64,000 nucleotides of DNA from Nitrospirota bacterium (GCA_016207885.1 JACQZE010000027.1:11944-75943), one strand, 5' to 3'; numbered from the stretch's first letter, positions 18,119-33,239 are shown. The notes: generated by a model from the sequence alone, not told the origin. Numbers and translations are program-made.

Positions 18119-18164
18119 ATCTGGAATTTCTGATAATTCTTGATCAAATAAAAGGAGGTGTGAA

Positions 18165-18227
18165 ATGAAAAAAATAAAATATATCGCGCCGAAGATTGTC
18201 GGCAGTGCGGTTGTTCATCCCTGCTAA
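18165..18227 (+). CDS. Conserved 20-aa small ORF (peptide A: MKKIKYIAPKIVGSAVVHPC); novel small peptide or leader peptide
   Basis: A strong Shine-Dalgarno (aAAGGAGGtgtgaa) lies 6 nt before the ATG at 18165, and the ORF ends with TAA at 18225-18227. A paralogous copy at 21257 differs mostly at synonymous codon positions. A hairpin plus T-run follows at 18249-18289. Confidence 0.55.
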   Translation: MKKIKYIAPKIVGSAVVHPC

Positions 18228-18248
18228 AGGTGAAGCTGGGTATTGAGA

Positions 18249-18289
18249 CAGGATATCTTCAGCTCTTCATGGAGATATCCTGATTTTTT
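18249..18289 (+). terminator. Rho-independent terminator or attenuator hairpin immediately downstream of sORF A
   Basis: CAGGATATCTtc(agctcttcat)ggAGATATCCTG forms a stem of about 10-12 bp and is followed by ATTTTTT at 18283-18289. It ends only 8 nt before the ATG of the downstream gene at 18298 and abuts that gene's AGGA ribosome-binding site. Confidence 0.5.
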
Positions 18290-18297
18290 CAGGATAC

Positions 18298-20340
18298 ATG
18301 GTAAAATCTTTTGTGTTTATGAAACGTTTAATCCTATTAAACGCCTTTTTGATTCTAATTCTGGCGCCTCTGAAATCTTTCTCTGCTGTTATTGAAGGAG
18401 TTGTGCTTTTCGAAAACGGCCCTGTTGAAGACTCATGCGTATCTGCATACAGCAGCTTCAGGGATATTGAAAAGGGGACCCCGTCATTCGTCTCCGCTAC
18501 AGGAGAGAAAAAAGGATTCTACAAACTTGACCTGCCTCCGGGAACTTATTTCCTGATCGCATCCGGACAGTCTTATGGTAAAAAATATTTCTCCTATCAC
18601 GGCGCAAACCCGATCAAGATAGAGTACAAAAACCTGTGGATACCTTTTATGGCTGTTTCTGAAACAGCAGTGAGTTTGAAAGAATCATCTTCCACGAAGC
18701 TTTCAGGCAAAGTCCTCTTTAAAAACAACCCTGTCAAAAACGCACATGTGTCGATATATCCTCTGGCAGCGGGAAGTTTCAGGGGCATGGGCTTTCTTAC
18801 AAGCACAACTGATGACAACGGGATTTTCAGCATGGGCATTGAGCCCGGGGAATATGTTGTTATAGCGCGAAAGAGGACCGGCAACAGCGGTATGACGCCT
18901 CTCGAAAAAGGCGACCTCTTCTGCTATCCAGCAGCCAATCCAGTGAATATCGCGGAGTTGAAAGAAATACAGGTGGAGATCCCATGTTATCCTAAAGACG
19001 ACCTCAAGGCCTTTCTAAATGAGGATGCTTATCCGGCGCTTCTGGTAAAAAAATCTGACGTGAACAGTATGAGATTCAGAGAGAATACAATTAATGAGGC
19101 GCGGGATCTATTCAGGATAAAAGGAAGAGCAACTGACTTAATGGGTAATCCGGTGAAAGACCTCTACGTTATGGCTTACAAGGGAAAGCCTTCGGATATG
19201 TTTCAGATGCATTATGTCAGGACCATGCCGGATTATATGGTCAGGGCCGATGAGAAAGGGAATTACTCGATCGACGCGGCAGCAGGCGCATATTACCTTG
19301 TTGCCCGGCAGCTTGTCGGAGAGGCTCCGGTCAAAGGCGAGTACTATGGGCTTTATGAAGCTAACGCAAACCACCTGTTTATAATTAATGACAAATCGCA
19401 TGATGCTGTAAATATTTTTGTAAACAGGGTGATGGCGGAAGAACAGCAGAGGGATAAAAGCATAGATCCTGAATCCGTAATCCGCAATTATGAATACAAA
19501 GGGGATATTGTTATTGATAAAAATACGGAATGGAGTGGAAAGATAACAATCAATGGGATCATTCATGTAGCCCGCGGTGCCATACTGACCATTGATCCGG
19601 GAACGACTGTCAGATTTAAGAAAGTTGACCGGACAAGGGACGGAGTTGGAGACGCAATGATAAAAGTAAGCGGCAGGCTTGAGGCGCTGGGCTCTGCGAT
19701 AAGACCCATCAGATTTACTTCCGCTGAGACAACGCCGGATAAGGCAGACTGGTCTTACCTCCTGTTTTTTGTGTCAGGAGATGAGAGCATTATAAGCCAC
19801 TGTATATTTGAATATGCTTTTTCCGGTGTTCAGGCGCATTTCTCGAAAGTGGTAATTAAAGACTCAGTCTTCAGGGATAATTATGAAGGCATAAGGTTCG
19901 GCAGGGCTGATCTTCGCATTGACCATAATGACATTTTTGATAATACTTACGGCGTCAGGCATACAAGGGTTGAAGAGCCTGTCGAAATCACACACAACAA
20001 CATCAGAAATAACGGGGTCGGCATTTTCCTTGTGCCGTCGAATCAGAATATAGTGGATTTTTCAGACACATTCGACAAAAAGGACGCCATTGCACGCAAA
20101 CAGTTTATTGTCACTTACAATAATATTGCTTATAATACGGAATATAATTACAGAATGGGTGAAAGGCAGGGATATGATATTATGATTAAAGAAAATTGGT
20201 GGGGCATGGAGCAGGAAAAGCAGATAATTGATACCATATTTGATGAGAATGAGGACAGCTCTTTGGGAAGTGTAATTTATAAACCATATCTTGTTTCTCC
20301 TGCAAAAGACGCAGGCGCGATAAGGGGGGGAGTATTATGA
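18298..20340 (+). CDS. Secreted protein with three N-terminal carboxypeptidase-regulatory-like (CarbopepD_reg) domains fused to a C-terminal right-handed parallel beta-helix (NosD/CASH-like) domain
   Basis: Signal peptide (MKRLILLNAFLILILAPLKSFSA). There are three GxVxxxxxPVxxAxV…DxxGxYxxxxxxGxYxxxA units (…FYKLDLPPGTYFLIASG; …IFSMGIEPGEYVVIARK; …NYSIDAAAGAYYLVARQ). The C-terminal beta-helix repeats include FRDNYEGIRF, DNTYGVRH, IRNNGVGIFL, and the protein has a terminal NWWG motif (KENWWGMEQEK). Confidence 0.8.
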   Translation: MVKSFVFMKRLILLNAFLILILAPLKSFSAVIEGVVLFENGPVEDSCVSAYSSFRDIEKGTPSFVSATGEKKGFYKLDLPPGTYFLIASGQSYGKKYFSYHGANPIKIEYKNLWIPFMAVSETAVSLKESSSTKLSGKVLFKNNPVKNAHVSIYPLAAGSFRGMGFLTSTTDDNGIFSMGIEPGEYVVIARKRTGNSGMTPLEKGDLFCYPAANPVNIAELKEIQVEIPCYPKDDLKAFLNEDAYPALLVKKSDVNSMRFRENTINEARDLFRIKGRATDLMGNPVKDLYVMAYKGKPSDMFQMHYVRTMPDYMVRADEKGNYSIDAAAGAYYLVARQLVGEAPVKGEYYGLYEANANHLFIINDKSHDAVNIFVNRVMAEEQQRDKSIDPESVIRNYEYKGDIVIDKNTEWSGKITINGIIHVARGAILTIDPGTTVRFKKVDRTRDGVGDAMIKVSGRLEALGSAIRPIRFTSAETTPDKADWSYLLFFVSGDESIISHCIFEYAFSGVQAHFSKVVIKDSVFRDNYEGIRFGRADLRIDHNDIFDNTYGVRHTRVEEPVEITHNNIRNNGVGIFLVPSNQNIVDFSDTFDKKDAIARKQFIVTYNNIAYNTEYNYRMGERQGYDIMIKENWWGMEQEKQIIDTIFDENEDSSLGSVIYKPYLVSPAKDAGAIRGGVL

Positions 20341-21203
20341 TTAAAAAAGCCGCGTTACTTTTTGTTCTGATTCTAATGTTATCAGTAACTGTAATCCATG
20401 CGGAAATTGAGACAGGCTGGATATCGGGCCGGATAATGATCAAGGACAACGGGCCATTAGCTGATGCCATGATAGTTTTCTTTGATACTCAATCAGGGCC
20501 TCCTCCATCTATCGATAAATACTTCAGGGTTCCGGACGGAATTGACGAAGTTGATGCTGAAGGCGGGTTTCGCGTATCGCTTCCTGTCGGCAAGTATTAC
20601 ATCGGAGCGATTAAAAGGGTATCTGCCGAAAAAGCCGGTCCGCCCCTGGATGGTGATTATTTCTTTATCAGTGAAGATAAAGATGGCAAACCTATACAGC
20701 ACATTATTGAGAACGGTAAGGAAGTGAAGCTTGGCACTCTCACAGATGCTGTCCCTTTTAAACGTTCGCTCCCTGAAGGAGTCACAGGGATATCAGGCAC
20801 TATCCTCGATATGGCAGATATCCCTGTTGAAGGGGCAATATTATTTGCATACTATACTGAGACACTAACTGGGATTCCGACCTTTACTTCCTATAAAACC
20901 GGAAAGGATGGCAAATATATTATCACAGTAGACACTGGAGGAGTTTATTACTTAAGGGTAAGAGACGTGTACGGAGGCGGTCCGCCTGTCCCAGGGGCTA
21001 TCATGGGAGGTTACGGGGAAGAAAAGCCTACAGCGATAGTCGCTAAAACAGGCGAGATATCTGGCGGCGTAGATATAAAAGTGATAAGGCATCTTGAAAT
21101 GGGGCCCAAACATCAGCCGGATGCAACGAACGAGAATTTCATGGAAGAGCAAATGAGAAAAATTAAACAGGAAATGGAGAATACGATTGAAAAGAAGCAA
21201 TAG
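20337..21203 (+). CDS. Secreted protein with two carboxypeptidase-regulatory-like domains (paralog of the N-terminus of the 18298 gene)
   Basis: The start overlaps the upstream stop as ATGA. Signal peptide (MIKKAALLFVLILMLSVTVIHA). CarbopepD_reg-type units are present (GRIMIKDNGPLADAMIVFF…GFRVSLPVGKYYIGA; ISGTILDMADIPVEGAILFAYY…TGKDGKYIITVDTGGVYYLRV). Confidence 0.75.
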   Translation: MIKKAALLFVLILMLSVTVIHAEIETGWISGRIMIKDNGPLADAMIVFFDTQSGPPPSIDKYFRVPDGIDEVDAEGGFRVSLPVGKYYIGAIKRVSAEKAGPPLDGDYFFISEDKDGKPIQHIIENGKEVKLGTLTDAVPFKRSLPEGVTGISGTILDMADIPVEGAILFAYYTETLTGIPTFTSYKTGKDGKYIITVDTGGVYYLRVRDVYGGGPPVPGAIMGGYGEEKPTAIVAKTGEISGGVDIKVIRHLEMGPKHQPDATNENFMEEQMRKIKQEMENTIEKKQ

Positions 21204-21256
21204 CAGATCATCAAGCCTGCTATTATACTGCGTCACGGCGTGGAAGGAGGTATAGC

Positions 21257-21319
21257 GTGAAAAAGATCAAATATGTTCCGCCCGGAATAGTCGGGAGCGC
21301 AGCTGTTCACCCTTGCTGA
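21257..21319 (+). CDS. Conserved 20-aa small ORF (peptide B: (M/V)KKIKYVPPGIVGSAAVHPC), paralog of sORF A
   Basis: A GGAGG Shine-Dalgarno (tggAAGGAGGtatagc) lies 6 nt before the GTG at 21257, and the stop is TGA at 21317-21319. Of 20 codons, 16 encode the same amino acid as sORF A; there are 9 synonymous codon changes and 4 amino-acid replacements (I>V, A>P, K>G, V>A). The sORF sits in the same position, upstream of a beta-helix gene, as sORF A. Confidence 0.5.
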   Translation: MKKIKYVPPGIVGSAAVHPC

Positions 21320-21366
21320 AATGAATGAGATATGAATGACCGGGATTTGTTGTCTTAAAATAACTT

Positions 21367-23874
21367 ATGAAATTTCTTGAAACGACATTCCTGCTTCTCA
21401 TCATTTTTATTTTATTTCCTTTTTCAGCCTCCGGAATAACCATCACAAGAGATACCGTGTGGAAAGGCGAAATAACTCTTTCAGAAGATATTGTCGTACC
21501 TGAAGGCGTTACGCTCACTATTCTATCCGGCACAGTGGTAAACATCATTCCTTCCGACAGGACAAAGAGTGAAGCCGAATATCTTTTATTCATGACCGAG
21601 ATGACAATCCGGGGCAGGCTGGAGGTTGAGGGAACCGGGGAAGCGCCAGTTGTATTCCAGGTAAAAGAGGATAAGCCTTACAGATGGGCAGGAATAATTA
21701 TTGACGGGGGGGAGGCAAATATAAAAGCGTGCAGGATTTATGATGCTGAAACAGGCCTTCTTGTAATGAACGGTTCACTTGGATTAACAGACTCGGTCCT
21801 TGAGGATAACCGGTACGGCATTGTTGCGCAGGGCGCGCAGACTTTTGTGAATATGAAAAACACGTATGTCCAAAAAAATGATCACGGCGTTTTTTCATTT
21901 GCCGGCGCAAATGTTGATTTCAGGGACAGCGTTATTGAGCATAACATGAAAAATGATCTCTACATGCCTAAGCCCGATAGTGAGAGTTTGACTGTAAAAC
22001 GCCCGGTCTTGTGTAACAGGAATAGTTATGATTTTGCGAAGGAGTTTGAAGTTCATGGTAAAGAAACAAGCAGAGAATACGGCGATGAAGTTTTGCCTGG
22101 AGATACGGTCTGGCGGGGAAGGATAGCGATTAACGGGCTGCTTAGAGTTCCTGTGAATTTCAGATTGATAATTGCTCCCGGCACGGTTGTTGAATTTAAA
22201 AAGAAGGATACAAACGGTGACGGTATCGGAGAGAACGGAATCCTGATGCAGGGAGTTCTGATTGCGAAAGGCACAAAAGATGAGCCGATCATCTTCAGGT
22301 CTGCGGAGAAACAAAAAAGACCCGGAGACTGGGATGCGATCAACATTATGAACAGTGACGGAGCACAGAATCTTGTGGAGTTCTGTCAGATAGAAAATGC
22401 ATACAGAGGGCTGCATTTCCACTTCTCAAACGTTATGGTGAGTGAATCAATTCTGAGAAATAATTATATAGGCATACAGTTTCAGGAATCAGCAGCGGAA
22501 ATAAGAGGGAGCCACATATACGGCAATAAAAACGGGATCAAAGGCAGGGATTCAGACATGAACTTTACCGGCAATTATGTCTTTGATAACATTAACGGAG
22601 TGAATCTTTTTCGTGTGAGCATGAACGCAAATGATAATACTGTGTTATACAACATGAATGACGGATTTAAGATCAGGGAAGGCATAACCGCGTTAGAGAG
22701 GAATTTTGTCGGCTGCAATAGATCCGGGCTCATGGTGAATGATGCGTTTCATGGCAGGCTCAGCAATAATGCCATTGTGAACAACTATGAGTCAGGTATG
22801 TCGTTAAAGGGTGTTGATAATCTGGATATCAGCGGTAATTTCATCCAGGGCAATGGAGTTAACGGCATCAATCTGCAAAATGCAGGAGCCGTGATCAAGG
22901 GTAATTATATTTCTGAAAACGGCGAAAGAGGCATCGGCATTCAATCGTTTACAGGAACGATAACGGAAAACAACATTGCCGGGAACGGCCTTTATGCCGT
23001 TGAGAACGAAAGCGGCAGCGATATTTCCGCTCCATCGAACTGGTGGGGAAATAAAGATGCGGCCTCAGTAATTTACGATAATAAGGATAGACATGAAAGA
23101 GGGGAGGTCTTATATTCACCTGAAATAGAAACGCCTTTAGTATTTTCATGGCCGTTAAAAAGTATTTATGCGGATGTTACATGGCCCTCGGGTATTTATT
23201 TAAATGAGCCTGTAACTGTTTATGGTTCAACCCTTGAAATCGCTCCCGGTGCGAATATTATATTTTCAAAAGGCGCGGGTTTGAAGGTTTCAGGCGGAAA
23301 GATGCTTGCACCTGGAACAAGTGATAAAAGGATAGTATTTACTTCCTCTGATAAAAATGAAGCCAGCCTGTGGGATGAAATACTTTTTGAACATGCTGAT
23401 GGGAGCGAATTCTCTTTCTGTGATTTTGAATATGCAACATGGGCTATTCACAGCCATTTTACCAGTCTGAAAATCTCAAACAGCCGATTTTTACATAATG
23501 AGGGGGGCATAAGATTCAGGAGCGGGCCAGTTGAAATCAACCGTTCGTTATTTCGGGAGAATAAGGTCGGGATAAGGTCATACTTTGGGAATGCATTGAT
23601 AGAGGAAAATGTTATATTAAATAACGATGTTGGTATATTTGTGAGAGAAAAAGGGAGTGGCCTAACCATAAAGAGTAACAATATTTATTCAAACAAGGCT
23701 TACAATGTCAGGGTTGGGGATTTTAATACTGAAGACATTGACGCGCGGAAAAACTGGTGGGGAGTCGATGACCCCGCCGTGACGATCTTTGATGCAAGAT
23801 GTGAGCCAGGTATCGGGGAAGTCATTTATGAACCGTATTTGACAGAGCCGGTGAAGCTGAATGGCGTAAATTAA
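21367..23874 (+). CDS. Secreted right-handed parallel beta-helix repeat protein (NosD/CASH-like) with NWWG motifs
   Basis: 835 aa with signal peptide MKFLETTFLLLIIFILFPFSASG. It has many beta-helix repeats (NRYGIVA, NYIGIQF, NKNGIKG, NINGVNL, NRSGLMV, NESGMSL, NGVNGINL, GERGIGI…). The motifs SNWWGNKD and KNWWGVDD resemble the KENWWG of the 18298 gene, of whose C-terminal half this protein is a paralog. Confidence 0.8.
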   Translation: MKFLETTFLLLIIFILFPFSASGITITRDTVWKGEITLSEDIVVPEGVTLTILSGTVVNIIPSDRTKSEAEYLLFMTEMTIRGRLEVEGTGEAPVVFQVKEDKPYRWAGIIIDGGEANIKACRIYDAETGLLVMNGSLGLTDSVLEDNRYGIVAQGAQTFVNMKNTYVQKNDHGVFSFAGANVDFRDSVIEHNMKNDLYMPKPDSESLTVKRPVLCNRNSYDFAKEFEVHGKETSREYGDEVLPGDTVWRGRIAINGLLRVPVNFRLIIAPGTVVEFKKKDTNGDGIGENGILMQGVLIAKGTKDEPIIFRSAEKQKRPGDWDAINIMNSDGAQNLVEFCQIENAYRGLHFHFSNVMVSESILRNNYIGIQFQESAAEIRGSHIYGNKNGIKGRDSDMNFTGNYVFDNINGVNLFRVSMNANDNTVLYNMNDGFKIREGITALERNFVGCNRSGLMVNDAFHGRLSNNAIVNNYESGMSLKGVDNLDISGNFIQGNGVNGINLQNAGAVIKGNYISENGERGIGIQSFTGTITENNIAGNGLYAVENESGSDISAPSNWWGNKDAASVIYDNKDRHERGEVLYSPEIETPLVFSWPLKSIYADVTWPSGIYLNEPVTVYGSTLEIAPGANIIFSKGAGLKVSGGKMLAPGTSDKRIVFTSSDKNEASLWDEILFEHADGSEFSFCDFEYATWAIHSHFTSLKISNSRFLHNEGGIRFRSGPVEINRSLFRENKVGIRSYFGNALIEENVILNNDVGIFVREKGSGLTIKSNNIYSNKAYNVRVGDFNTEDIDARKNWWGVDDPAVTIFDARCEPGIGEVIYEPYLTEPVKLNGVN

Positions 23875-23919: not shown

Positions 23920-24615
23920 ATGCTTGAAAATATATTTAAAATTGTCGCTATTCTAATTGTAATATCCCTGTTTTTTGGGATTGGTAAAGCCACTGCCGTT
24001 GAGACAACTATCTTCAAAGGACACGTTTTTGACGTGGAAGGCGACGTCGTTAAAGGGACGGAGATATTTATTTACAATTCTCCAGATACCAGGAGGCCTG
24101 CTGATTTCATATCAGGTCGCACGGAAGAGGATGGATATTTTAGTATTACGCTGCCGTTCGGGAAGTATTGGGCTGTGGCGAGATTGAGGAAAGACGACAA
24201 ATATGGCCCGCTTTTGATTGGAGATAAGCATTCAGGAGAACCTGTTGAGATAGAGGTTGAAGCCGGTAAAGAACTTGTTATGAATTTTACAGTAGTGGAT
24301 ATCAGGGACGCCGGGCGTCTATCAAAAAAGACGGGAGAAGATTATTTAAGGATTAGCGGGCGTATTATTGCTGCGGACGGAAAACCGGTCAAACAGGTTT
24401 ATGCTGTGGCAAACAGGACTAATCCGGCTCCTGATATACCCGACTTCTTGTCTGCATGGACGGATATGTATGGGCGATATACCCTTTATTTACCAAAAGG
24501 CAAATATTACATTGGATATGATGATGAATTCCCAATGCATAGTTATAGAGTTTACAAGGAATTGATTATGGAATCGGACAAGGATAATTTTGATATTGTA
24601 GTTGAAAGCAAGTGA
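23920..24615 (+). CDS. Secreted protein with two carboxypeptidase-regulatory-like domains (paralog of the 20337 gene)
   Basis: Signal/anchor MLENIFKIVAILIVISLFFGIGKATA. Units FKGHVFDVEGDVVKGTEIFIY…GYFSITLPFGKYWAVARL and ISGRIIAADGKPVKQVYAVANRT…GRYTLYLPKGKYYIGYD. Confidence 0.75.
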   Translation: MLENIFKIVAILIVISLFFGIGKATAVETTIFKGHVFDVEGDVVKGTEIFIYNSPDTRRPADFISGRTEEDGYFSITLPFGKYWAVARLRKDDKYGPLLIGDKHSGEPVEIEVEAGKELVMNFTVVDIRDAGRLSKKTGEDYLRISGRIIAADGKPVKQVYAVANRTNPAPDIPDFLSAWTDMYGRYTLYLPKGKYYIGYDDEFPMHSYRVYKELIMESDKDNFDIVVESK

Positions 24616-25202
24616 CGCACATGAAGAAAATATTATCTGGTCTTCTAGTAACAGTTTTGCTTTTCACCTCCGCCGCGGAAGCCTGTGTAGGCAAGATACT
24701 CAATATAGGCATCTTGAATTCGGTTGAAGAAAATCTTCTTGCCGAATTGATCTCGGTGATGGTAAATGAGAGAACAGGCACGACTGTTAATATCAAGGTT
24801 TACAAAGATTCAAAAGAGATTTACAACGCAGTGAAGAACGAGGAAATAAGTATAGTAATTGAAAACACTGAACGCGCATTAAAGATACTGGGTCTCTCTG
24901 GAAATGAGAGTGATGCAAAGGCATATGATGTTTCCAGGGATGAGTTCAGGAGCAGATTGAACCTCATATGGCTGAAACCATTTGGAATTGTGAACATGGA
25001 AGATGACGGAGGACAATATTATTATGCTCCTGTGATCACCGAAGATGTGCTGATCAATTTCCCGGCGCTTCCGAGGCTCATAAACAAGCTTTCGGATATT
25101 ACATTGGATAAGAATTATAGAGGTATGATTATCTCTATCAAGCGCGGAGAAAAAGCCAGGAAAGCGGCAAAAGAATTTTTGAAGAAAAAGAAACTGGTAT
25201 AA
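24612..25202 (+). CDS. Hypothetical secreted/periplasmic protein
   Basis: 196-aa ORF; the ATG at 24621 gives MKKILSGLLVTVLLFTSAAEAC, a signal peptide. There are no recognisable catalytic motifs. A lysine-rich C-terminus overlaps the downstream gene start. Confidence 0.5.
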   Translation: MTHMKKILSGLLVTVLLFTSAAEACVGKILNIGILNSVEENLLAELISVMVNERTGTTVNIKVYKDSKEIYNAVKNEEISIVIENTERALKILGLSGNESDAKAYDVSRDEFRSRLNLIWLKPFGIVNMEDDGGQYYYAPVITEDVLINFPALPRLINKLSDITLDKNYRGMIISIKRGEKARKAAKEFLKKKKLV

Positions 25203-25203
25203 C

Positions 25204-26121
25204 GTGCTGCGATTGCCGAAGAATAGAAATGGAAGGATTTACGGCTACCTTTCATCGAAAGAATTAACAATAATACTTTTTACGGTCATCTGTCCTATAT
25301 TGGCAGTTGCATCTTTTTCTGAATCAATATTTCCTTTTGTTTGGTATATGATCAAGGCGCTGCTTGCACTGATAATTCTAAACCTTTTTTTTTGCACGCT
25401 TCAAAGGATAAAAACACTTTCAAGACCTGTTCTGATCATTCACCTTGGTGTGATCATTGTTTTTATTGGAGGAGGGATCAGTTCTTTCGGTTATGTCGCT
25501 ACAGTCAATATATACGAAGGAAGCACCGTTGATAAGGTCTACAGGTGGGATGTGAAACAGGACGTTTCTCCGGGAATAGAAATTACCGTAACTAAGCTGC
25601 ACGAAGAATATTATCCGGCGCCTTTAAAAGTCGGAGTACTCAGAGGCGGCGATAAGTTCGGGCTTTTTACACTGACAATCGGCGAGAGCTTTAGAGCCGG
25701 GAATTACAGGATACAGGCAGACACCCTTGATGTAACATCGCAAAAACTGAGACTAAGCGTTTTTAACGCAGACAGCTACATTGGATATGCCGATACAACA
25801 GGTGTTATGGAATTGCCTGCCGATTTTCCTTTTGATTTTAAGCTCGTGGCATACATGAATCCTGTCATTAAAAAGACATGGGTGGACCTGGTTCTTTCAA
25901 GAAATGGTGAAGTAGTCGCTGAAGGCAGTACAGGAGTGAACAGTCCTTTTACATGGCAGGGGCTGAAATTCTTTCATACCGCGACAAATAGGGATCCGGA
26001 CAGAAATCCTTTTGTAGGCATTCAAATTACAAGAGATCCCGGGATCCCGATTGTTTATGCAGGATTCTGTATTGTATTTATCGGCGGGACAGCATATTTA
26101 TTAAGAAGGATATTTTTATGA
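25204..26121 (+). CDS. Short ResB/CcsB-like membrane protein (putative cytochrome c biogenesis accessory)
   Basis: GTG start. N-terminal TM helices include an in-membrane His (LIIHLGVIIVFIGGGISSFG), a roughly 200-aa soluble loop follows, and a C-terminal TM (IPIVYAGFCIVFIGGTAYLL) closes the protein. This topology resembles the short ResB-like proteins that accompany multiheme cytochromes in Desulfobacterota. Confidence 0.4.
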   Translation: MLRLPKNRNGRIYGYLSSKELTIILFTVICPILAVASFSESIFPFVWYMIKALLALIILNLFFCTLQRIKTLSRPVLIIHLGVIIVFIGGGISSFGYVATVNIYEGSTVDKVYRWDVKQDVSPGIEITVTKLHEEYYPAPLKVGVLRGGDKFGLFTLTIGESFRAGNYRIQADTLDVTSQKLRLSVFNADSYIGYADTTGVMELPADFPFDFKLVAYMNPVIKKTWVDLVLSRNGEVVAEGSTGVNSPFTWQGLKFFHTATNRDPDRNPFVGIQITRDPGIPIVYAGFCIVFIGGTAYLLRRIFL

Positions 26122-26139
26122 CAGAAAAGGGGAAAATAG

Positions 26140-27039
26140 ATGAGATTTATTAAACTGTTGCTCTTTATTAATCTGATTATTATTTTTGCCTCATGCAGGC
26201 AGTCACCTTCCGTTAAAAATGAAAAGGCCTACAGGATAGGCTACATGATCTGCAACAGTGAAGAAGAAACGCTTTACAGATTCAGGCCGCTGACAGCTTA
26301 TTTAGGTAAAAAACTCGGCGTAAAAACAGAGGCTGTGGCGATTGATACAACCAACTTTACAAAAGAGGTTGACAGCCTGGATTTTACTCATACGAATTCG
26401 CTTCTCTACATAATATTAAACCGCTATCACGGCGTCAGGGCATTGACAGCGGACAAACAGGGAGCGCTCGGATTTAGATCGAACGGGGCGATCGTCACAA
26501 GAAAGGACAGCGGGATAAATACGATAAAAGATTTGAAAGGGAAGAGCATGGCCTTCGGCCCCATGCTCGCGCCGACCGGATACTTACAGCAATACGACCT
26601 GATGATCCAAAGCGGTATAGATCCTGAAGATGACCTGTCGTTTTACACGATACCGGCAGGCACGTATAAACATGAAAAGGTGATCTACGGAGTTCTGTAC
26701 GGCATGTATGACGCCGGCGCGTTTCAGATGCTCGATTTTGAACGGATGGTTGAAGAGGGAAAGATCGACCGTGGTGATTTCAGGATAATCGCTGAGGGCG
26801 GATCGATCCCGTACTGCACCTTCGGCTCTGCGCAAAAGATCGACGAACCGCTCGCAAATGCCTTAAAGAAGGCATTGCTCGAATTAAAAAAGGAAGACAC
26901 GGTGGAAATAGACGGAGAGACTGTGAAGGTGCTTGCAAGGGCAAGGCTTGACGGTTTTCAGGATGTAAAAGATGAGGATTACGATGTTGTGAGAGACATC
27001 GCAAAGCGCACCAATATGCCGCCGTATCAAAAATATTAA
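26140..27039 (+). CDS. PhnD/SsuA-like periplasmic substrate-binding protein (phosphonate-binding family)
   Basis: Lipoprotein-like signal (…IIIFASC). The pattern YRIGYMI…ETLYRFRPLTAYLGKKLGVKTEAVAIDTTNFTKEVDSLDF…GAIVTRKDSGINTIKDLKGKSMAFGPMLAPTGYL…DAGAF is typical of the Phosphonate-bd (PhnD-like) fold. Confidence 0.65.
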   Translation: MRFIKLLLFINLIIIFASCRQSPSVKNEKAYRIGYMICNSEEETLYRFRPLTAYLGKKLGVKTEAVAIDTTNFTKEVDSLDFTHTNSLLYIILNRYHGVRALTADKQGALGFRSNGAIVTRKDSGINTIKDLKGKSMAFGPMLAPTGYLQQYDLMIQSGIDPEDDLSFYTIPAGTYKHEKVIYGVLYGMYDAGAFQMLDFERMVEEGKIDRGDFRIIAEGGSIPYCTFGSAQKIDEPLANALKKALLELKKEDTVEIDGETVKVLARARLDGFQDVKDEDYDVVRDIAKRTNMPPYQKY

Positions 27040-27109
27040 AATAGAAGCATGAGATCGTGACCTGTGTATGCCGTTTTTTACTATCGGCAATCGCAGGTGA
27101 AAAGACGAA

Positions 27110-27634
27110 ATGGATAAACTGGATAAAATCTCCATACTTTTTGCCCTTATATTTATCGCAGCTATTGCGGTTGTCAGCGCTGAATACCGCAGTGAATCAG
27201 GATTCCATATCAATCGTTCAGTTACTTACGCAGACAATACGGCGATCGCTGGCGGGATGGCCGCCGATCAGATCAAAACGATCAATAACCTGTTGGAGAG
27301 CGATAATTTTCTTAAGGCGGAAATGCTGCTTAATGAATTAATCAACAGGTATCCGTATGAAGGAGAGCTTCATATGCTGATGGGCGATATGATGATGAGG
27401 AAGCAGGATGCTGTCGGAGCGATCTTTAAGTACAGGGAAGCGGTTGACCTGAATCCCGATTATCTGGATAAGAAAGCGCCTCTCTTTCAGGGATATAAAA
27501 TTAAGGTTGCCGTTGAGGAGGCAAAGGTCAGGATTAATGAAACGCTCTCAAAACGGCATGATGATCAGGATGTGAAGGCGGCAAAAAAAAACATGTATTA
27601 TCTTTTAAAAAAACTGGCAGGATCCTGTGGGTAA
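27110..27634 (+). CDS. TPR-like repeat protein, secreted/anchored
   Basis: N-terminal hydrophobic segment (ISILFALIFIAAIAVVSA) followed by helical TPR-like repeats (FLKAEMLLNELINRYPYEGELHMLMGDMMMRKQDAVGAIFKYREAVDLNPDY). Confidence 0.55.
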   Translation: MDKLDKISILFALIFIAAIAVVSAEYRSESGFHINRSVTYADNTAIAGGMAADQIKTINNLLESDNFLKAEMLLNELINRYPYEGELHMLMGDMMMRKQDAVGAIFKYREAVDLNPDYLDKKAPLFQGYKIKVAVEEAKVRINETLSKRHDDQDVKAAKKNMYYLLKKLAGSCG

Positions 27635-28733
27635 GCTGAAATTCATATCAACAGGCATTTTACTCGGAGCCGGAGCGGTTCTGCTTTCTTATTTCGGCAA
27701 TCCGGCAAATACAGGCATATGCGTCTCCTGTTTTATGAGGAATATCGCAGGCGCCGTCGGAATGCACAACGATATAAGGATGCAGTATATCAGGCCGGAG
27801 ATCATAGCATTTGTTCTGGGCTCTTTTTTCGCGTCTCTTGCAGCGAGGGAATTCAAAGCGACTTCAGGAAGCTCGCCGCTTCTAAGGTTCTTTGTCGGCG
27901 TCTTTCTGATTTTCGGGTGTTCTGTATTCATCGGCTGTCCGATAAAACTGATCCTGCGCATATCTGCCGGAGATTTCACAGCTATTATCGGTGCAATTGG
28001 CCTTGCTGCAGGAGTCTGGACAGGTTTGCAATTTCTTGAAGGAGGTTTCAGGCTCGGAAGGCCTTCTGAGACACAGCGCGCGAACGGCTTTATCATTCCC
28101 GGCTTAATGCTGGCGCTTTTCATTCTCTTTATTGTTCAGGCGCCATTTATAAATTTCAGTACAAAGGGTTCTGCGGCACAACATGCGCCCGTGTGGGTAT
28201 CGTTGTTTTTCGGACTTCTTATCGGGGCCTTTGCTCAGATATCCGGCTTCTGCATTACCGGCGGCCTGGCAAGATTGTTTTTATGGGGGCCGAAAGAAGT
28301 CTACGGATGCCCGAAGTCAACAGGCCTTTTGATGGCAATAGGAGCATTCTTCCTGACCGCGCTGTCTGCAAATTTGCTCACTGGACAATTCTCTCCTGAT
28401 CTAACGACGCAGGCTGTAGTATCTGATACTTATTTGTGGGACGCGCTCGGTATGGGGCTTGTGGGATTTGGTTCTGTCCTGATTAAAGGATGCCCGTTCA
28501 GACAATTGATACTTTCAGGACAGGGCGATACCGATGCCGGAGTAACGGTAATGGGAATGCTTGTCGGCGGAGCGCTTGTGCAGAATTGGGGAATTGCTGC
28601 CGCCTCTACCGAGGTTCCGCTATGGGGAAAGATCGCTGTATTAGCCGGATTTGTTTTCCTGCTTATAATAGGCCTGCTCTATCGTGAAAGGGATAAAGGG
28701 CTTGCGCCTGAATACCAGACGGGATTGGATTGA
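27627..28733 (+). CDS. YeeE/YedE family sulfur-compound (thiosulfate-type) transporter, full-length two-repeat form
   Basis: 368-aa polytopic membrane protein with conserved cysteines in the hallmark positions (NTGICVSCF, IFGCSVFIGCPIKL, ISGFCITGG, IKGCPFRQL) of the Sulf_transp family. Confidence 0.75.
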   Translation: MGKLKFISTGILLGAGAVLLSYFGNPANTGICVSCFMRNIAGAVGMHNDIRMQYIRPEIIAFVLGSFFASLAAREFKATSGSSPLLRFFVGVFLIFGCSVFIGCPIKLILRISAGDFTAIIGAIGLAAGVWTGLQFLEGGFRLGRPSETQRANGFIIPGLMLALFILFIVQAPFINFSTKGSAAQHAPVWVSLFFGLLIGAFAQISGFCITGGLARLFLWGPKEVYGCPKSTGLLMAIGAFFLTALSANLLTGQFSPDLTTQAVVSDTYLWDALGMGLVGFGSVLIKGCPFRQLILSGQGDTDAGVTVMGMLVGGALVQNWGIAAASTEVPLWGKIAVLAGFVFLLIIGLLYRERDKGLAPEYQTGLD

Positions 28734-30664
28734 TCCAGGCGCTTAACAAAATCCTTAAAATGAAAAAACATAACAATAATGAATGCCGGATACACGGGAC
28801 ATCTCATAAGGGAGCTAACAGGACGCTCCTCTTCATGGTATTTGCATCTTTATTGCTTATTGTCTGGCATGTGTGGGTTTACGGCCCGACCGGCCACGCG
28901 GCAAGGCCTGAGTTATCACAAAAACCTTTTTTAGTGATCCTTGGGAATGAGATATGGGATATGCTCTTCAGCGGACACGGGATGCTTGCCGAGTTAAAAG
29001 ATATCTTCCCGTACTTTATCTTCGGGATACTTCTGGCCGGCCTCATACGCACATACAAGCTCACGATAAAACTTCGAAGCACTCTCAATCGTTACGGTTT
29101 CCTCAGTATTTTCTTGGCGTCGCTGATAGGGATATTAACACCTCTGTGCGCCTGCGGCACTCTTACGACTGCGGTCAGCCTGCTGTTTGCCGGGCTGCCG
29201 TTAGCTCCGGTTATGTCTCTTCTTGTGACTTCTCCGCTCATGAGCCCCTCAACTTACCTGCTCACGCTAAACGATCTGGGGCCGGAATGGACGGCCATCA
29301 GAACGATTGCCGCATTTCTGATGGGCATCTTTGCCGGGGTACTGACCCATCTCATCAGGAACAAAGGTTTTCATGCAGAGGCCATTTTCATTGAAGGCGC
29401 GATCCCAAGGGGTGATTTCCATGATGAGAATTATCCTGACGCCCGCCTGAGATGCAATTGCAAGGAGAAATTCGGAAACAGGGTAGCTGCCAGGACGAAT
29501 AATATGTTTATTGTCTTTCTTGCAAAGTCATCTGAGATGCTCTGGCTTGTCGGGAAATACGTTCTCATCGGAGTTGCAACAGGCAGCATCGTTCAGAGGT
29601 ATATGCCTTACGACTGGATCTATGAATTTTTCGGGCAGGAAGACAAGCTTAGCATAGTATGGATCACGCTCGGGTCGGTTCCGATATTTCTGCATCAGAT
29701 AAGCGCCTCAAGCATTCTATACCATATCAGGAGCACGCTTGACGGCACCATGAATGGAGGGGCGGGACTGGCTTTCCTTATCGGAGGGCCGGTAACGGCA
29801 ATTCCAACCATGGTAATGTTCTGGACGGTCTTTAAAAAGAGGGTGTTTTTCCTGTACCTGTTTGTCTGTGTTGCTGGAACAATTATGATCTCTTATGCTT
29901 TTCAATATTTCGTATTTACTCCATATGTTGACGCGGGCAATCCTGTTTTACGGGGCGTAAGTTCCATATCAGGAGGAAGTTCGGCAGTTATAACGAAAAT
30001 GCAAAATGGCAAACATGTGAGTATTGTCATGGATCCCGGCGGCAAAGGCATCATCGCTGCATTCAATAATTCAGCTGAAGGATACGGAGGCGTTGTCTTT
30101 GATTCCGGCGGCGAGAGATTCATGGAAGGTTCGGCAGATAAGTATGATAACCGGAGATATATAGAAAATATCGCGGCATGGCTGGAAGATAACAATGTAT
30201 CGGGAAACACGAGAAATATATTAATTTATAATACAGCCAGCGGATCAGGAACGGATAAGAATGCCTTCAGCCGAAGCGTAGTTGAGGGCCTTGAAAAAAA
30301 GGACGGATTTGAAATAAAGCTAACGGACAGAGAAGAGACTCCTCAAATAACCCGGGCATCGCTTGAAGAATACAGCCAGCTCTGGATAATTTTTGGAGAA
30401 GCAGATCCGGCATGTTGTTTCTCAGGCGCTGAGCTAAATACAATTACCGGATTTTCGCAAGATGGGAAAGGCCTGCTGATTGTTGACGGAAAACATCATG
30501 AAGGAACTGAAGGCCCGGCTGTCAACAGGCTGGCTTCCATTTTTGGCGTCGCCTTCTCCGGCTCTGTTGAAAATACGGAAGAGATCCGGGTAGCTAAGTC
30601 ATTCTATTTTTTCAACAGCATGTCTGAGATACTTGAAAGGTTTTACAAAAGGATGAGATACTGA
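28730..30664 (+). CDS. Permease of the DUF318/ArsP_1 family (TPLCxC motif) fused to a roughly 250-aa C-terminal soluble domain of unknown function
   Basis: The N-terminal half has about 8 TM helices and the ILTPLCACGT motif characteristic of ArsP_1/UPF0718 permeases. The C-terminal half (GGSSAVITKMQNGKHVSIVMDPGG…) has no recognisable motif. The start codon is uncertain: TTG at 28730 overlaps the upstream stop, and ATG at 28760 gives MKKHNNNE. Confidence 0.6.
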   Translation: MIQALNKILKMKKHNNNECRIHGTSHKGANRTLLFMVFASLLLIVWHVWVYGPTGHAARPELSQKPFLVILGNEIWDMLFSGHGMLAELKDIFPYFIFGILLAGLIRTYKLTIKLRSTLNRYGFLSIFLASLIGILTPLCACGTLTTAVSLLFAGLPLAPVMSLLVTSPLMSPSTYLLTLNDLGPEWTAIRTIAAFLMGIFAGVLTHLIRNKGFHAEAIFIEGAIPRGDFHDENYPDARLRCNCKEKFGNRVAARTNNMFIVFLAKSSEMLWLVGKYVLIGVATGSIVQRYMPYDWIYEFFGQEDKLSIVWITLGSVPIFLHQISASSILYHIRSTLDGTMNGGAGLAFLIGGPVTAIPTMVMFWTVFKKRVFFLYLFVCVAGTIMISYAFQYFVFTPYVDAGNPVLRGVSSISGGSSAVITKMQNGKHVSIVMDPGGKGIIAAFNNSAEGYGGVVFDSGGERFMEGSADKYDNRRYIENIAAWLEDNNVSGNTRNILIYNTASGSGTDKNAFSRSVVEGLEKKDGFEIKLTDREETPQITRASLEEYSQLWIIFGEADPACCFSGAELNTITGFSQDGKGLLIVDGKHHEGTEGPAVNRLASIFGVAFSGSVENTEEIRVAKSFYFFNSMSEILERFYKRMRY

Positions 30665-30734
30665 TTCAGGTGTAGCTTTTGCAGAGAGGGCTTATATTTT
30701 TGAATTGCTGTAAATAACATTTCCGGAGGGAATT

Positions 30735-31061
30735 ATGAAGAACAAGAGTGTTGTGCTGGACATCGCGAAGCTTAAAAAATTCAGTGAAGAAAAGAGGCAC
30801 CATGAAACAATATGGTCGGACAAACATTCAAAGATAAACCTCATATGCATGAAACCCGGGCAGGAAATTATAACCCATACGCATCATGGAAACCATATCT
30901 GGGTAGTTATGGAGGGCAAGGGGGAATTTATGACAGCAGGCGAGACACAGGCCATTGATATCGGCAAGATAGTGATCGTACCCGCTCTTGTAGACCACGG
31001 GATTCGCAATGCTTCAGATGAAGATCTTGTTATTGCGTCCCTGACGGCTCAGGGTGACTGA
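30735..31061 (+). CDS. Cupin domain protein
   Basis: 108 aa with …GQEIITHTHHGNHIWVVMEGKGEFMTAGE…IVIVPALVDHGIRN, the two-His cupin motifs. The stop overlaps the next start as ATGA. Confidence 0.75.
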   Translation: MKNKSVVLDIAKLKKFSEEKRHHETIWSDKHSKINLICMKPGQEIITHTHHGNHIWVVMEGKGEFMTAGETQAIDIGKIVIVPALVDHGIRNASDEDLVIASLTAQGD

Positions 31062-31386
31062 TAAGGCGGAATGGAAAATGAAAATATTCAGGAATGCTGA
31101 CGTAATGTGGCGGGAAGAGGACGAATACAGGGCGCAGGCTTATGAAAGGCTTGAAAAAGGAGAAGATGCCGAAAGGATCGGCACATCCGTTTTATTCCAC
31201 AATGGAATGATGCTGTCGCTTAACCTGCTTGGGACAGAGATATGGAAAAGGTGCGAGGGCGGGACGATCGATGAAATAGTATCTGAACTTACCGGGATAT
31301 TTGATGTTGAGCCTGAAGTCCTGAAAAAGGATGCGGAGGCATTTATCTCCGAGCTGAAAGAAAAGGGGTATCTCAGATATGAATGA
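31054..31386 (+). CDS. PqqD-family protein (RiPP recognition element-like chaperone)
   Basis: 110 aa; …VLFHNGMMLSLNLLGTEIWKRCEGGTIDEIVSELTGIFDVEPEVLKKDAEAFISELKEKGYL fits the PqqD/RRE pattern. It is translationally coupled to the downstream radical SAM gene. Confidence 0.7.
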   Translation: MTDKAEWKMKIFRNADVMWREEDEYRAQAYERLEKGEDAERIGTSVLFHNGMMLSLNLLGTEIWKRCEGGTIDEIVSELTGIFDVEPEVLKKDAEAFISELKEKGYLRYE

Positions 31387-32383
31387 CTTTCTTCCGGGCT
31401 CGCCGCTGACGATCAACTGGGCTGTTACGAACAAATGCAATTTTAAATGCAGCCACTGCTACAGCCGGAATGACCCCTCCGGTGAACTTGATATGAACCT
31501 GCTTTTTCAATGCGTTGAGAGAGTCGCAAAGGCAGGCGTACTTTCGATCAACTTTGGAGGCGGGGAGCCTCTGTTAAGGAGCGGCCTGATGGAAATAGCA
31601 CGGTTTGCTTCACAAAACGGCCTGCGGGTTTCCATGAACAGCAACGGTTTTTTAATAGACAACCGGAAGGCGGTTGACCTGAAAGTCAGCGGATTTTCAA
31701 AAGTCGGGATAAGCATTGACAGCCACCTGTCTGAGATCCACGATGAGTTCAGAGGCGCAATTGGCAGTCATGAAAGGGCGGTGAGGGCGCTTGACTGCCT
31801 GAATAAAGCAGGGATTGAGACATCCATATCAACCGTGATCTGCAGGATCAATCACAAGGATATTGACGCATTGGTTGAGTTTGCGGCCCGGAACAAAGTG
31901 AAACATCTCAATTTTCACAACTTCAAATGCTCAGGACTCGGATATTCAAATAAGGACAAGCTGGATCTATGCGGTGATGAATGGAAGGAATTTTATATCA
32001 AGGCGCTTGACGCAAAAAATAAAACTAAAGACCTGGATATATCGCTTGATGATCCTGTGATAGCTCTGCTGGGGGCTAATAAAAATGGATCGATGGTCAG
32101 GGGAAGCATCTGCGGGAAGCTTTCATTGAATATTAAATCAAACGGGGATATAACCCCATGCGGATTTATCCCGATCGTGATAGGCAATATCACAAAAGAC
32201 GATTTAAAAGACATATGGAAAAACTCTCCGGCGCTGATCAGGATGAGAAACAAAACACCAAAAGGCAAGTGCGTAACATGCGGCCATTATGCGGATTGTC
32301 TCGGCGGCTGTACAGCGCGCGCCATCGCGCTGACAGGCGACATGAACAACCCTGATCCGCATTGCTGGTATCATGAATCCTGA
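31379..32383 (+). CDS. Radical SAM enzyme with C-terminal SPASM domain
   Basis: The motif CNFKCSHCYS (Cx3Cx2C) lies at residues about 20-30, followed by GGGEPLL. The C-terminal auxiliary-cluster motifs are CGKLSLNIKSNGDITPCG…CVTCGHYADCLGGCTARA, i.e. a SPASM domain. Confidence 0.85.
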   Translation: MNDFLPGSPLTINWAVTNKCNFKCSHCYSRNDPSGELDMNLLFQCVERVAKAGVLSINFGGGEPLLRSGLMEIARFASQNGLRVSMNSNGFLIDNRKAVDLKVSGFSKVGISIDSHLSEIHDEFRGAIGSHERAVRALDCLNKAGIETSISTVICRINHKDIDALVEFAARNKVKHLNFHNFKCSGLGYSNKDKLDLCGDEWKEFYIKALDAKNKTKDLDISLDDPVIALLGANKNGSMVRGSICGKLSLNIKSNGDITPCGFIPIVIGNITKDDLKDIWKNSPALIRMRNKTPKGKCVTCGHYADCLGGCTARAIALTGDMNNPDPHCWYHES

Positions 32384-33239
32384 TAACTTGATAGATCCGT
32401 TCATCGTTTACTGGGACCTGAGGCCGTCGGGATACAGTGAAGAGACGATCTTAAATGTTTGCGATGAACTGATAAAGAGCAAAATATTTGTCCTTAATCT
32501 AAGAGATATTTCACATCCTCTAAGCGCCGCCTCGATCGGTATTCTCGAAAAACTGGGTGAAACGAATATTAAGATCAGGCTGACTGTGAAGCACGATGCC
32601 GTTGAACGGCCGATGATGGAGATATTACAGAAACGCAGGGTCTCTATTTTCACAGAGACGGATTCCATAGTAAAACTCCGATCCACTGATGCTGCCGTTA
32701 CGGGCAGTGTTTCATTTTTATTAAACAAAAATAACTTCCATGATATTCCTGACGTTATTTGCTTCTGCTTAAAGAGCCAGGTAACTGAACTTGAATTTCC
32801 GATACAGAGGGCTGAAGACAAAGATATATTTTATCCTGACTTCGAAAATATTGGCCGGCTTCATGATGAACTGAAATCAATGTCATTTGAAAAGCTGAAG
32901 GTAACGGTTCATGATCCTTTTCTCTGGAAGGCCTTTCATGACAAAGAACAGCATGAAGGAACGGGCTGTAACGGCGCAAACACGATGATCTATATCTCGC
33001 CGGATCTTGACGTTACTCCATGCCCTTTACTGCCTTTAAATATGGGGCATCTTGGCACTGATACTTTAAATGAAATCTTTTCTTCAGCCAAAAGACGGCA
33101 AATAAGAAAAACGCTTCTTGCTCCGCCTTATGAATGCCGGAAATGCGCCATGGTTGATAATTGCATAGGCGGCTGCAGGGGAAGGGCCTATGTTTTAGAT
33201 GATACCTTTGATAAGAAAGACCCGGCATGCCGGTTTTAG
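32373..33239 (+). CDS. SPASM-domain protein lacking the radical SAM Cx3Cx2C motif (degenerate radical-SAM-like partner)
   Basis: 288 aa with no Cx3Cx2C. The C-terminus (GCNGANTMIYISPDLDVTPCPLLP…YECRKCAMVDNCIGGCRGRA) is SPASM/twitch-like. The gene overlaps the upstream radical SAM gene by 11 nt. Confidence 0.6.
   Translation: MNPDNLIDPFIVYWDLRPSGYSEETILNVCDELIKSKIFVLNLRDISHPLSAASIGILEKLGETNIKIRLTVKHDAVERPMMEILQKRRVSIFTETDSIVKLRSTDAAVTGSVSFLLNKNNFHDIPDVICFCLKSQVTELEFPIQRAEDKDIFYPDFENIGRLHDELKSMSFEKLKVTVHDPFLWKAFHDKEQHEGTGCNGANTMIYISPDLDVTPCPLLPLNMGHLGTDTLNEIFSSAKRRQIRKTLLAPPYECRKCAMVDNCIGGCRGRAYVLDDTFDKKDPACRF

Follow-up and report, generated by a model that had tools for sequence, protein, structure and literature searches.

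What are two closely similar reading frames of only 20 codons doing amid genes for giant extracellular proteins? The question is raised by 64,000 nucleotides of DNA from a Nitrospirota bacterium (GCA_016207885.1, JACQZE010000027.1:11944-75943; "the window" below means this whole stretch), in which two such small open reading frames (sORFs), A and B, each lie immediately upstream of a beta-helix gene. We find that the two sORFs belong to what is almost certainly a real, conserved and never-annotated peptide family. In kind, the family most likely consists of precursor peptides that are recognised by a PqqD-type protein and modified by a radical S-adenosylmethionine (SAM)/SPASM enzyme. More specifically, we hold the chances to be about even that these peptides are the so-far missing precursors of GeoRSP, a curated but orphan system whose genes are found in the same window.

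Both sORFs, and the strong Shine-Dalgarno sites that the first-pass annotation (made from the sequence alone) had reported in front of them, were recovered at the same positions (Table 1). That annotation had counted 19 differences in 63 nucleotides between the two copies, with nine synonymous and four replacement changes; our recount gives 18 differences, reached through about 11 synonymous and five non-synonymous steps, while its figure of 16 identical residues out of 20 stands. When the A and B regions are aligned as DNA, similarity is restricted to the Shine-Dalgarno site and the open reading frame (ORF), and the flanks are unrelated. The paralogous proteins encoded downstream of A and B are 30-34% identical, as compared with 80% for the peptides. 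Pfam also confirms the beta-helix and CarboxypepD_reg neighbours around each sORF, and fold analysis the hairpin with a U-tract after copy A: a 13-pair stem (18249-18282) is followed by ATTTTTT, folds with a z-score of -3.3 and abuts the ribosome-binding site of the next gene. Unlike copy A, sORF B has no terminator 3' of the ORF. The twin layout is found again in two of the loci that we compared, L101 and L085, and the syntenic orthologue of sORF A in L085 encodes MKRIKYVPPKIIGSAVIHPC.

The family was scanned for with the degenerate DNA pattern [IVM]VG[ST..]Ax[IVM]HPC-stop, using one genome per species across 185,579 species. The pattern carries 38 bits of information, so that about 4 chance matches are expected in 1.2e12 positions, whereas at least 120 loci were found; all family counts given here are among the matches listed (at least 120 loci). 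They comprise at least 121 peptide copies in at least 73 genomes, with at least five copies in the richest genome. All listed matches except L062 are ORFs of 17-21 codons of one form, MKKxxYxxP[KR][IV]VG[ST]AxVHPC-stop. By taxonomy, about 73 of the listed loci fall in the Geobacteraceae/Desulfuromonadales and 34 in the Nitrospirota/Thermodesulfovibrionia, nine come from metagenome-assembled genomes (MAGs) of unclassified "Deltaproteobacteria", and three lie on contigs that are probably mis-binned. Cultured strains found to carry the peptide include Geobacter sp. AOG1, Geobacter sp. OR-1, Pelotalea chapellei, Geobacter hydrogenophilus, Geomobilimonas luticola and Geotalea toluenoxydans.

Conservation extends beyond the positions that the pattern enforces. 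Not one of the 117 copies lacks Tyr(-15) or Pro(-12), Lys or Arg occupies -11 in 108 of 117, and the Lys-Lys that follows the start codon is conserved as well. Translation signals are kept throughout, with ATG (104), GTG (11) or TTG (2) as the start codon, a strict Shine-Dalgarno sequence (GGAG or GAGG) in 106 of 117 members, and TGA (77), TAA (36) or TAG (9) as the stop. In the unconstrained N-terminal codons, the proportion of synonymous differences (pS) is 0.87, meaning that synonymous sites are saturated, and that of non-synonymous differences (pN) is 0.27, falling to 0 at Tyr and Pro. For each of the invariant Pro, Gly, Val and Ala residues, all four codons are in use, and 115 distinct DNA sequences translate into 96 distinct peptides with the frame, start, Shine-Dalgarno site and stop preserved. 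The combination of saturated synonymous sites and invariant residues shows that selection acts on the translated peptide, and thereby bears out the proposal, previously drawn from the two window copies, of purifying selection on the peptide rather than on RNA.

The description of the family as new also held. The peptide has no match in Pfam or NCBIfam at E values up to 1 and none in Rfam, its members were never called as genes, and a collection of about 15 billion predicted proteins contains none of ten exact family peptides, those of sORFs A and B among them; this novelty is defined by exact look-ups and hidden Markov model libraries. That gene callers never report the sORFs, which have just 20 codons, is also what could be said for regarding them as non-functional, i.e., as chance ORFs or as an element conserved at the RNA or DNA level whose frame is open by accident. 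This possibility is effectively refuted, and its probability is negligible, given the synonymous saturation, the 96 peptides kept by 115 DNA sequences together with their start, stop and Shine-Dalgarno site, the use of all four codons at the invariant residues and the lack of an Rfam match.

Two other readings of the ORF were discarded. Selenocysteine read-through of the TGA stop is ruled out because 45 of 122 copies end in TAA or TAG, so that the stop is a true stop. A lipoprotein signal peptide (MKK...C) is ruled out by the missing hydrophobic core and by the Cys being the last residue. Variants outside the pattern were encountered as well, namely KIIGSAVIHPC (L085, about 3283-3345 in the oriented locus), VVQPC (L157, 2389-2436) and VVGKSIVHPC (L180, 1025-1072). 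The existence of such variants means that the pattern scan undercounts the family, and the VVQPC form in L157 means that His18 is not absolutely invariant.

What kind of peptide is this? The two invariant residues outside the pattern belong to a motif, YxxPx[I/V], which all 117 copies carry with constant spacing to the C-terminus. Discrete PqqD-type recognition proteins of lasso and LPP pathways bind the leader motif [Y/W]xxPx[L/V/I/F/A], and its YxxP part is essential for this binding (PMC13381572; PMC10368454). It is this leader motif, which YxxPx[I/V] matches, that is informative about the peptide, rather than the likeness to the MbnA and PqqA N-termini to which the first-pass annotation had pointed.

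The window itself encodes a PqqD-type protein. The radical SAM/SPASM and PqqD genes that had been noted 10-13 kb downstream of the sORFs are present at 31054-33239, and, judged by NCBIfam profiles, this cluster is the GeoRSP system. Its PqqD-family chaperone scores 139.7 bits against TIGR04302 (cutoff 100) and its radical SAM/SPASM enzyme 568.9 bits against TIGR04303 (cutoff 400). The third protein, SPASM-only, reaches 211.3 bits against TIGR04304, which is below the cutoff of 300, although this is its best-scoring family and it stands in the right position; its homologue in L100 passes with 320.9 bits. As a result, automatic annotation would overlook the third component of GeoRSP in this Nitrospirota lineage. 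Among solved structures, the best match of the window PqqD protein is the lasso recognition protein TbiB1 (leader complexes 5V1U and 5V1V), a weak match with an E value of 0.095, and the best relatives of the radical SAM enzyme are the peptide-modifying PqqE, SkfB and SuiB. A structure model of the PqqD protein predicted from its single sequence (mean pLDDT, the per-residue confidence score, 60.6) had an implausible all-helix fold and was discarded.

GeoRSP and the peptide share the same unusual two-phylum range, the Geobacterales/Desulfuromonadales and the Nitrospirota. A radical SAM protein identical to that of the window is on record in a Nitrospirae MAG, and homologues with 61-100% identity occur in Nitrospirae, Ca. 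Sulfobium, Geobacteraceae, Desulfuromonadales, Geotalea uraniireducens and Geobacter pickeringii, the last two being cultured GeoRSP carriers. GeoRSP has no recorded substrate, and no paper on it was found in the searchable literature.

We propose a mechanism in which the N-terminal half of the peptide, with its YxxPx[I/V] motif, would be clamped as a beta-strand by the GeoRSP PqqD protein, by analogy with the discrete recognition proteins. This binding would present the C-terminal core, VG[ST]AxVHPC, to the radical SAM/SPASM enzyme. The C-terminal His-Pro-Cys is the probable site of the modification, for which a thioether formed from Cys20 and an oxidative chemistry at the C-terminus are candidates. 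The presumed precursor genes are dispersed, several per genome, each typically as the last cistron behind a giant or CarboxypepD_reg gene and followed by a terminator, with one copy often heading a beta-helix block that ends in GeoRSP. The family with its coding constraint, ribosome-binding sites, terminators, synteny and motif is shown by the data; the PqqD binding, the radical SAM modification and any role of the product with the giants are inferred. A short precursor gene with a terminator immediately behind it is a layout often met among ribosomally synthesised peptides that are modified post-translationally (RiPPs).

The surroundings of the GeoRSP cassette were compared across about 35 loci from assemblies and metagenomes whose flanks are long. 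In about 30 of these, spread over the two phyla, co-directional genes for a beta-helix protein (835 residues in the window), a CarboxypepD_reg protein (231 residues) and an OpuAC-like protein come before the cassette. These are usually followed by a ResB-like gene and, in most loci, by an ArsP_1 permease and a cupin, after which the PqqD gene begins; a PhnD-TPR-YedE module lies inside the block or just after it. The curated definition of GeoRSP thus seems too narrow, as the cassette nearly always ends a larger block, which spans 21367-33239 in the window. Loci with the long block are L122, L133, L140-L142, L157-L159, L164, L166, L168, L173, L181-L184, L187, L191 and L206. In the last of these, of the Geotalea uraniireducens type (14556-21035), the GeoRSP block is followed by full-length ResB and CcsA, a pair for cytochrome c maturation, and then by a cytochrome of more than 1451 residues, which points to dedicated heme-attachment machinery in the same neighbourhood.

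The peptide is linked to this block. It directly heads the block as copy B of the window and in L122/L123, L158, L182 and L157, and lies one gene further upstream in L180. Besides the window, a block-head peptide thus occurs in 5 of about 18 other distinct loci in which the start of the block is visible, about 13 being without one. At about five copies per 4-Mb genome, the chance of finding a peptide in a given 10-kb stretch is about 1%, and the enrichment at the block head is therefore strong, though not obligate. Peptide and GeoRSP were also found on one contig in L090 and L100 directly, and in L022, L023, L042, L046 and L095 by matching. What is new here is the addition to GeoRSP of the peptides and of the block of about ten genes upstream of the cassette.

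A C-terminal core on a precursor of 20 residues, combined with a discrete PqqD protein and a radical SAM/SPASM enzyme, is the architecture of the pyrroloquinoline quinone (PQQ) and mycofactocin pathways. With PQQ (PqqA/PqqD/PqqE), the system shares a very short precursor (about 20-24 residues) with the modified residues, presumptive in our case, near the C-terminus, and a discrete PqqD-family chaperone encoded side by side with a radical SAM/SPASM enzyme; PqqE is the best solved relative of the window enzyme. PQQ precursor genes occur in several copies in some genomes. The systems differ in that the window peptide contains no Glu and no Glu-x-x-x-Tyr pair, that its genes lie kilobases away or dispersed behind giant genes, and that a SPASM-only protein, a cupin and an ArsP-type permease come in addition in the GeoRSP cluster. 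No PqqB, PqqC or PqqF was detected among the cluster genes, and the PqqE and PqqD model scores stay below their cutoffs. In mycofactocin (MftA/MftB/MftC), similarly, a radical SAM/SPASM enzyme with a PqqD-like guide acts on the C-terminal residues of a short precursor, and the window enzyme matches the MftC model at 1.9e-45 (155.6 bits, below the cutoff of 265). The window peptide, however, ends in HPC rather than GVY, and no homologues of MftD, MftE or MftF were seen in the window cluster.

With the lasso and LPP systems (TbiB1, FusB1, LppB), the peptide has the leader motif itself in common, and the window PqqD protein has its weak match to TbiB1. Here 14 residues follow the Tyr of the peptide, as compared with a lasso core that comes 17 residues after the Tyr, and the presumed partner enzyme of the peptide is the radical SAM/SPASM protein. 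Neither the lasso leader protease (B2) nor the Asn-synthetase-like cyclase (C) appears among the Pfam and NCBIfam matches of the ORFs at 18-36 kb. GeoRSP as curated (TIGR04302, TIGR04303, TIGR04304) consists of three proteins and no substrate.

Where, then, do the peptide genes lie across the family? For a neighbourhood census, loci were oriented on the peptide gene and their ORFs were clustered; 100 copies have at least 900 bp of upstream sequence. In 61 of these, the peptide gene stands on the same strand behind the gene of a giant protein from one cluster, with gaps of 28-145 nucleotides in 60 cases and 321 nucleotides in one. The giants are either multiheme cytochromes of about 1000-2500 residues with up to 36 CXXCH motifs or heme-free fn3/DUF2341 proteins. 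Another 20 of the 100 copies have a CarboxypepD_reg gene upstream, and some stand alone (L080, L077, L021). Homologues of the window cytochrome (5439-10724) are directly upstream of the peptide in 56 of 120 listed loci, and fn3 giants homologous to that at 10700-18118, ending in Cys-x(0-3), precede it in other genomes. The window contains both arrangements, with copy A behind the pair of a 32-heme cytochrome and an fn3 giant and copy B behind the CarboxypepD_reg gene at 20337-21203.

What follows the peptide gene differs from locus to locus, and in 23 of 95 cases the next gene is encoded on the opposite strand. A homologue of the 835-residue beta-helix protein follows the peptide in 24 of 120 listed loci; other downstream genes encode beta-helix or CarboxypepD_reg proteins, TPR, ankyrin and Sel1 proteins or a PMT_2 glycosyltransferase, and further sets comprise an OmcZ-like cytochrome with a subtilase and a peptidyl-prolyl isomerase (PPIase), or NikR with CbiMNQO. 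A terminator-like hairpin with a T-run follows 72 of 114 copies (63%), usually 40-70 nucleotides past the stop; in the controls the count was 6 for shuffled sequence and 5 of 105 for the interior of upstream genes. The hairpin starts at a median of about 20 nucleotides after the sORF stop codon, and its frequency is 46 of 72 before co-directional genes and 14 of 23 before convergent ones. The typical place of the peptide gene is the last cistron of the giant gene's transcription unit. The earlier statement that the peptides head beta-helix cassettes is thus correct for the window but describes a minority arrangement in the family.

The giants themselves end in characteristic ways. The upstream cytochromes share a C-terminus with GPWFFG, a lone Cys-His outside any CXXCH, AGG..Y and a terminal WNxK[T/S]PW, as seen in the window (10560-10724), in L004, L006, L009, L012, L033, L070 and L078 and in others; the window protein has AICH...WNNVTPW within the full ending AICHGAATANGSAGWPDNQKWNNVTPW. 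In L184 and L191, where the cytochrome gene comes before the beta-helix gene and no peptide is present, the cytochrome has another C-terminus (...CHYRTSPIWS..). Many of the heme-free fn3 giants before a peptide have a ...YRVR..SPYS... ending with a Cys 0-3 residues from the C-terminus, as in the window (18080-18118; DETCNE, within PAYQQGDETCNE) and in L025, L037, L049, L050, L057, L074, L085 and L097. Among the peptides behind WNxKxPW cytochromes, 24 of 37 have Asn or Asp at position -5.

How does the assignment to GeoRSP stand when all of this is weighed? It is favoured by the motif in every one of 117 copies, by the presence of a GeoRSP PqqD protein and radical SAM enzyme in the window, by the block linkage and by the shared taxa. 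With the YxxPx[I/V] motif and the block synteny, the RiPP-precursor idea of the first-pass annotation and its link to the distant radical SAM/SPASM-PqqD genes gain real support. Several observations weigh against the assignment. The peptide gene is not tightly adjacent to the maturase, being 7-10 kb away when the two are linked (10-13 kb in the window), and about 13 GeoRSP loci have no peptide before the beta-helix gene or within 10 kb. The strongest and commonest linkage is with the genes of giant extracellular proteins and not with GeoRSP, and the peptide subtypes track the type of the upstream giant, which hints at a partner-specific role. Furthermore, no leader protease is evident in the GeoRSP block, the core has only about nine residues with a single Cys, and the match between the PqqD protein and TbiB1 is, as given above, weak. 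The linkage with the giants leads to a serious rival, which we nevertheless consider unlikely, namely that the peptide acts by itself as a small protein, in direct partnership with the co-transcribed extracellular giants and without GeoRSP modification. It might be a subunit in fixed stoichiometry, cap the giants, or serve as a His/Cys ligand or cross-linking partner to their conserved Cys-containing C-termini, and the GeoRSP link would then be indirect, with all genes lying in one extracellular electron-transfer neighbourhood. The 61 of 100 copies on the same strand behind a giant gene, the variable downstream genes, the terminator that closes the giant gene's transcription unit, the conserved C-termini (lone CH with WNxK[T/S]PW; Cys-x(0-3)) and the correlation of peptide subtype with upstream protein class are all consistent with such a role. 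But the proposed partners are secreted and the peptide lacks a signal peptide; 20% of copies lie behind small CarboxypepD_reg genes and some stand alone; and both the perfectly conserved YxxPx[I/V] motif and the enrichment at the GeoRSP block head are left unexplained.

The terminators bear on another proposal of the first-pass annotation, a cis-acting leader peptide with possible ribosome stalling. In an arrest peptide of this kind, stalling at Pro-Cys-stop would control the following terminator and so read-through into the downstream genes. The hairpins after 72 of 114 copies, with that of copy A abutting the next ribosome-binding site, agree with this, and the near-fixed length, the conserved C-terminal 15 residues and the Pro-Cys-stop would be compatible with arrest in the exit tunnel. 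An attenuation leader is expected to have a conserved regulated gene downstream and a terminator within reach of the ribosome, and neither is found here: the downstream gene is not conserved and lies in 23 of 95 cases on the opposite strand, where hairpins are as common, and the hairpin starts outside the footprint of a terminating ribosome. In addition, too little space separates the sORF from the upstream gene for a promoter of its own, no terminator follows copy B, TGA, TAA and TAG all serve as stops, and the N-terminal MKK and the recognition motif are conserved too. Given a hairpin about 20 nucleotides past the stop that is present whatever lies downstream, stalling is disfavoured, and we regard such a leader as improbable. 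A further scenario goes beyond the assignment to GeoRSP and is rather unlikely: GeoRSP and the beta-helix/CarboxypepD_reg/ResB-like/ArsP block would turn the peptides into a cofactor or a heme- or metal-binding cap, which would be exported and used by, or attached to, the giants. The lone C-terminal Cys-His of the cytochromes and the C-terminal Cys of the fn3 proteins would then be the partners for attachment or ligation. In quinohemoprotein amine dehydrogenase, the small subunit QhpC is cross-linked by the radical SAM/SPASM enzyme QhpD and then joined with the heme subunit. The two cases share the concept of a small peptide that is modified at Cys and works with a cytochrome c protein; they differ in that QhpC has 80-110 residues and several Cys, and in that the association between peptide and cytochrome is here a genomic one, with no sequence relationship expected.

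The features of the window around the sORFs and up to the end of the GeoRSP cluster are collected in Table 1. The first ORF of the window encodes a beta-helix protein of at least 1664 residues without heme motifs, so that three giant genes in a row stand at the start of the cluster, ahead of sORF A. Within the block, the YedE-family putative selenium transporter adjoins the ArsP_1 permease (27627-30664). The best NCBIfam matches of the permease, the SO_0444 Cu/Zn efflux transporter and SaoE, are both below cutoff, and the adjoining binding protein has a weak match to a putative selenate-binding family.

Table 1. Positions of the sORFs, their signals and the neighbouring genes in the window (residues, aa)
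Feature	Position	Strand	Evidence and remarks
Giant beta-helix protein, 1664 aa	84..5078	+	Pfam Beta_helix, three stretches; opens the co-directional cluster
Giant multiheme cytochrome c, 1761 aa	5439..10724	+	Pfam Cytochrome_C7, MtrC/MtrF, GSu_C4xC__C2xCH; 32 CXXCH; C-terminus AICHGAATANGSAGWPDNQKWNNVTPW
Giant fn3/DUF2341/SBBP protein, 2472 aa	10700..18118	+	Pfam; C-terminus PAYQQGDETCNE; stop 47 nucleotides before sORF A
Shine-Dalgarno site of sORF A, AGGAGG	18153..18158	+	Read off the sequence
sORF A	18165..18227	+	ATG start, TAA stop; encodes MKKIKYIAPKIVGSAVVHPC; fits the family consensus
Terminator-like hairpin and U-tract 3' of sORF A	18249..18289	+	Fold analysis; same feature family-wide
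Secreted CarboxypepD_reg and beta-helix (NosD-like) protein, 680 aa	18298..20340	+	Pfam
CarboxypepD_reg protein, 288 aa	20337..21203	+	Pfam; stop 53 nucleotides before sORF B
Shine-Dalgarno site of sORF B, AAGGAGG	21244..21250	+	Read off the sequence
sORF B	21257..21319	+	GTG start, TGA stop; encodes (M/V)KKIKYVPPGIVGSAAVHPC
Beta-helix/NosD-like protein, 835 aa	21367..23874	+	Pfam; synteny in about 30 loci; first gene of the block ending in GeoRSP
CarboxypepD_reg (231 aa), OpuAC-like (196 aa) and ResB-like (305 aa) proteins	23920..26121	+	Pfam, synteny; CarboxypepD_reg gene at 23920-24615
Phosphonate-type binding protein, TPR protein and YedE-family transporter	26140..28733	+	Profile matches, synteny; variably placed module
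ArsP_1-family permease (644 aa) and small cupin (108 aa)	28730..31061	+	Directly before the PqqD gene in most long GeoRSP loci
GeoRSP PqqD-family peptide chaperone	31054..31386	+	TIGR04302; candidate peptide recognition protein
GeoRSP radical SAM/SPASM enzyme	31379..32383	+	TIGR04303
GeoRSP SPASM-only protein	32373..33239	+	TIGR04304, below cutoff

Other neighbours of the peptide genes were noted outside the window. Nickel/cobalt uptake genes stand beside the peptide in the Nitrospirota loci L017 and L032 (NikR with CbiM/N/Q/O); L003, also from Nitrospirota, has the same gene clusters minus NikR, the Geobacteraceae locus L051 has CbiQ, and ATPases of a CbiO-like cluster are near the peptide in L008, in L041 (Geobacteraceae) and in L051. 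This adjacency is suggestive for a His-Pro-Cys peptide, and may simply mirror where the giant cytochrome genes are located. In L065, L082 (Pelotalea chapellei) and L086, the peptide lies at least 35 nucleotides upstream of the trio of OmcZ-like cytochrome, subtilase and PPIase, in which the cytochrome has about 475 residues and a TIG domain. We take this trio to resemble the OmcZ nanowire gene set.

Three sets of radical SAM- or SPASM-related neighbours were considered and set aside. An AhbD-like radical SAM/SPASM gene, 165 nucleotides downstream of the peptide in L080, was considered as a second maturase; its adjacency is incidental, since it belongs to a highly conserved family that stands beside the uroporphyrinogen decarboxylase gene (hemE) and, in two other genomes, has no peptide upstream. 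A weak GeoRSP_SPASM-like neighbour in L093 (93 bits) is uninformative, and the next genes there are housekeeping genes (cysteine desulfurase, PhoH, TsaD, RsmA). B12-binding radical SAM genes occur near the peptide in seven loci, where none exceeds a specific family cutoff and no assignment was made.

Altogether, these peptides are invisible to standard annotation and yet conserved across two phyla, and they give the curated orphan GeoRSP a concrete and testable candidate substrate. They illustrate that precursors of the RiPP type can be scattered through a genome, each with an unrelated giant gene in front of it instead of a maturase at its side, a layout that enzyme-adjacent genome mining would miss. 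For the organisms, the peptides are wired to the largest multiheme cytochromes of mineral-respiring and mineral-oxidising bacteria, and, if their product is a cofactor, ligand or cap for the giants, it would be a new component of extracellular electron transfer. Were the cofactor or cap scenario true, GeoRSP would join PQQ and mycofactocin as a third system that makes a cofactor from a peptide, in this case specifically for extracellular electron transfer.

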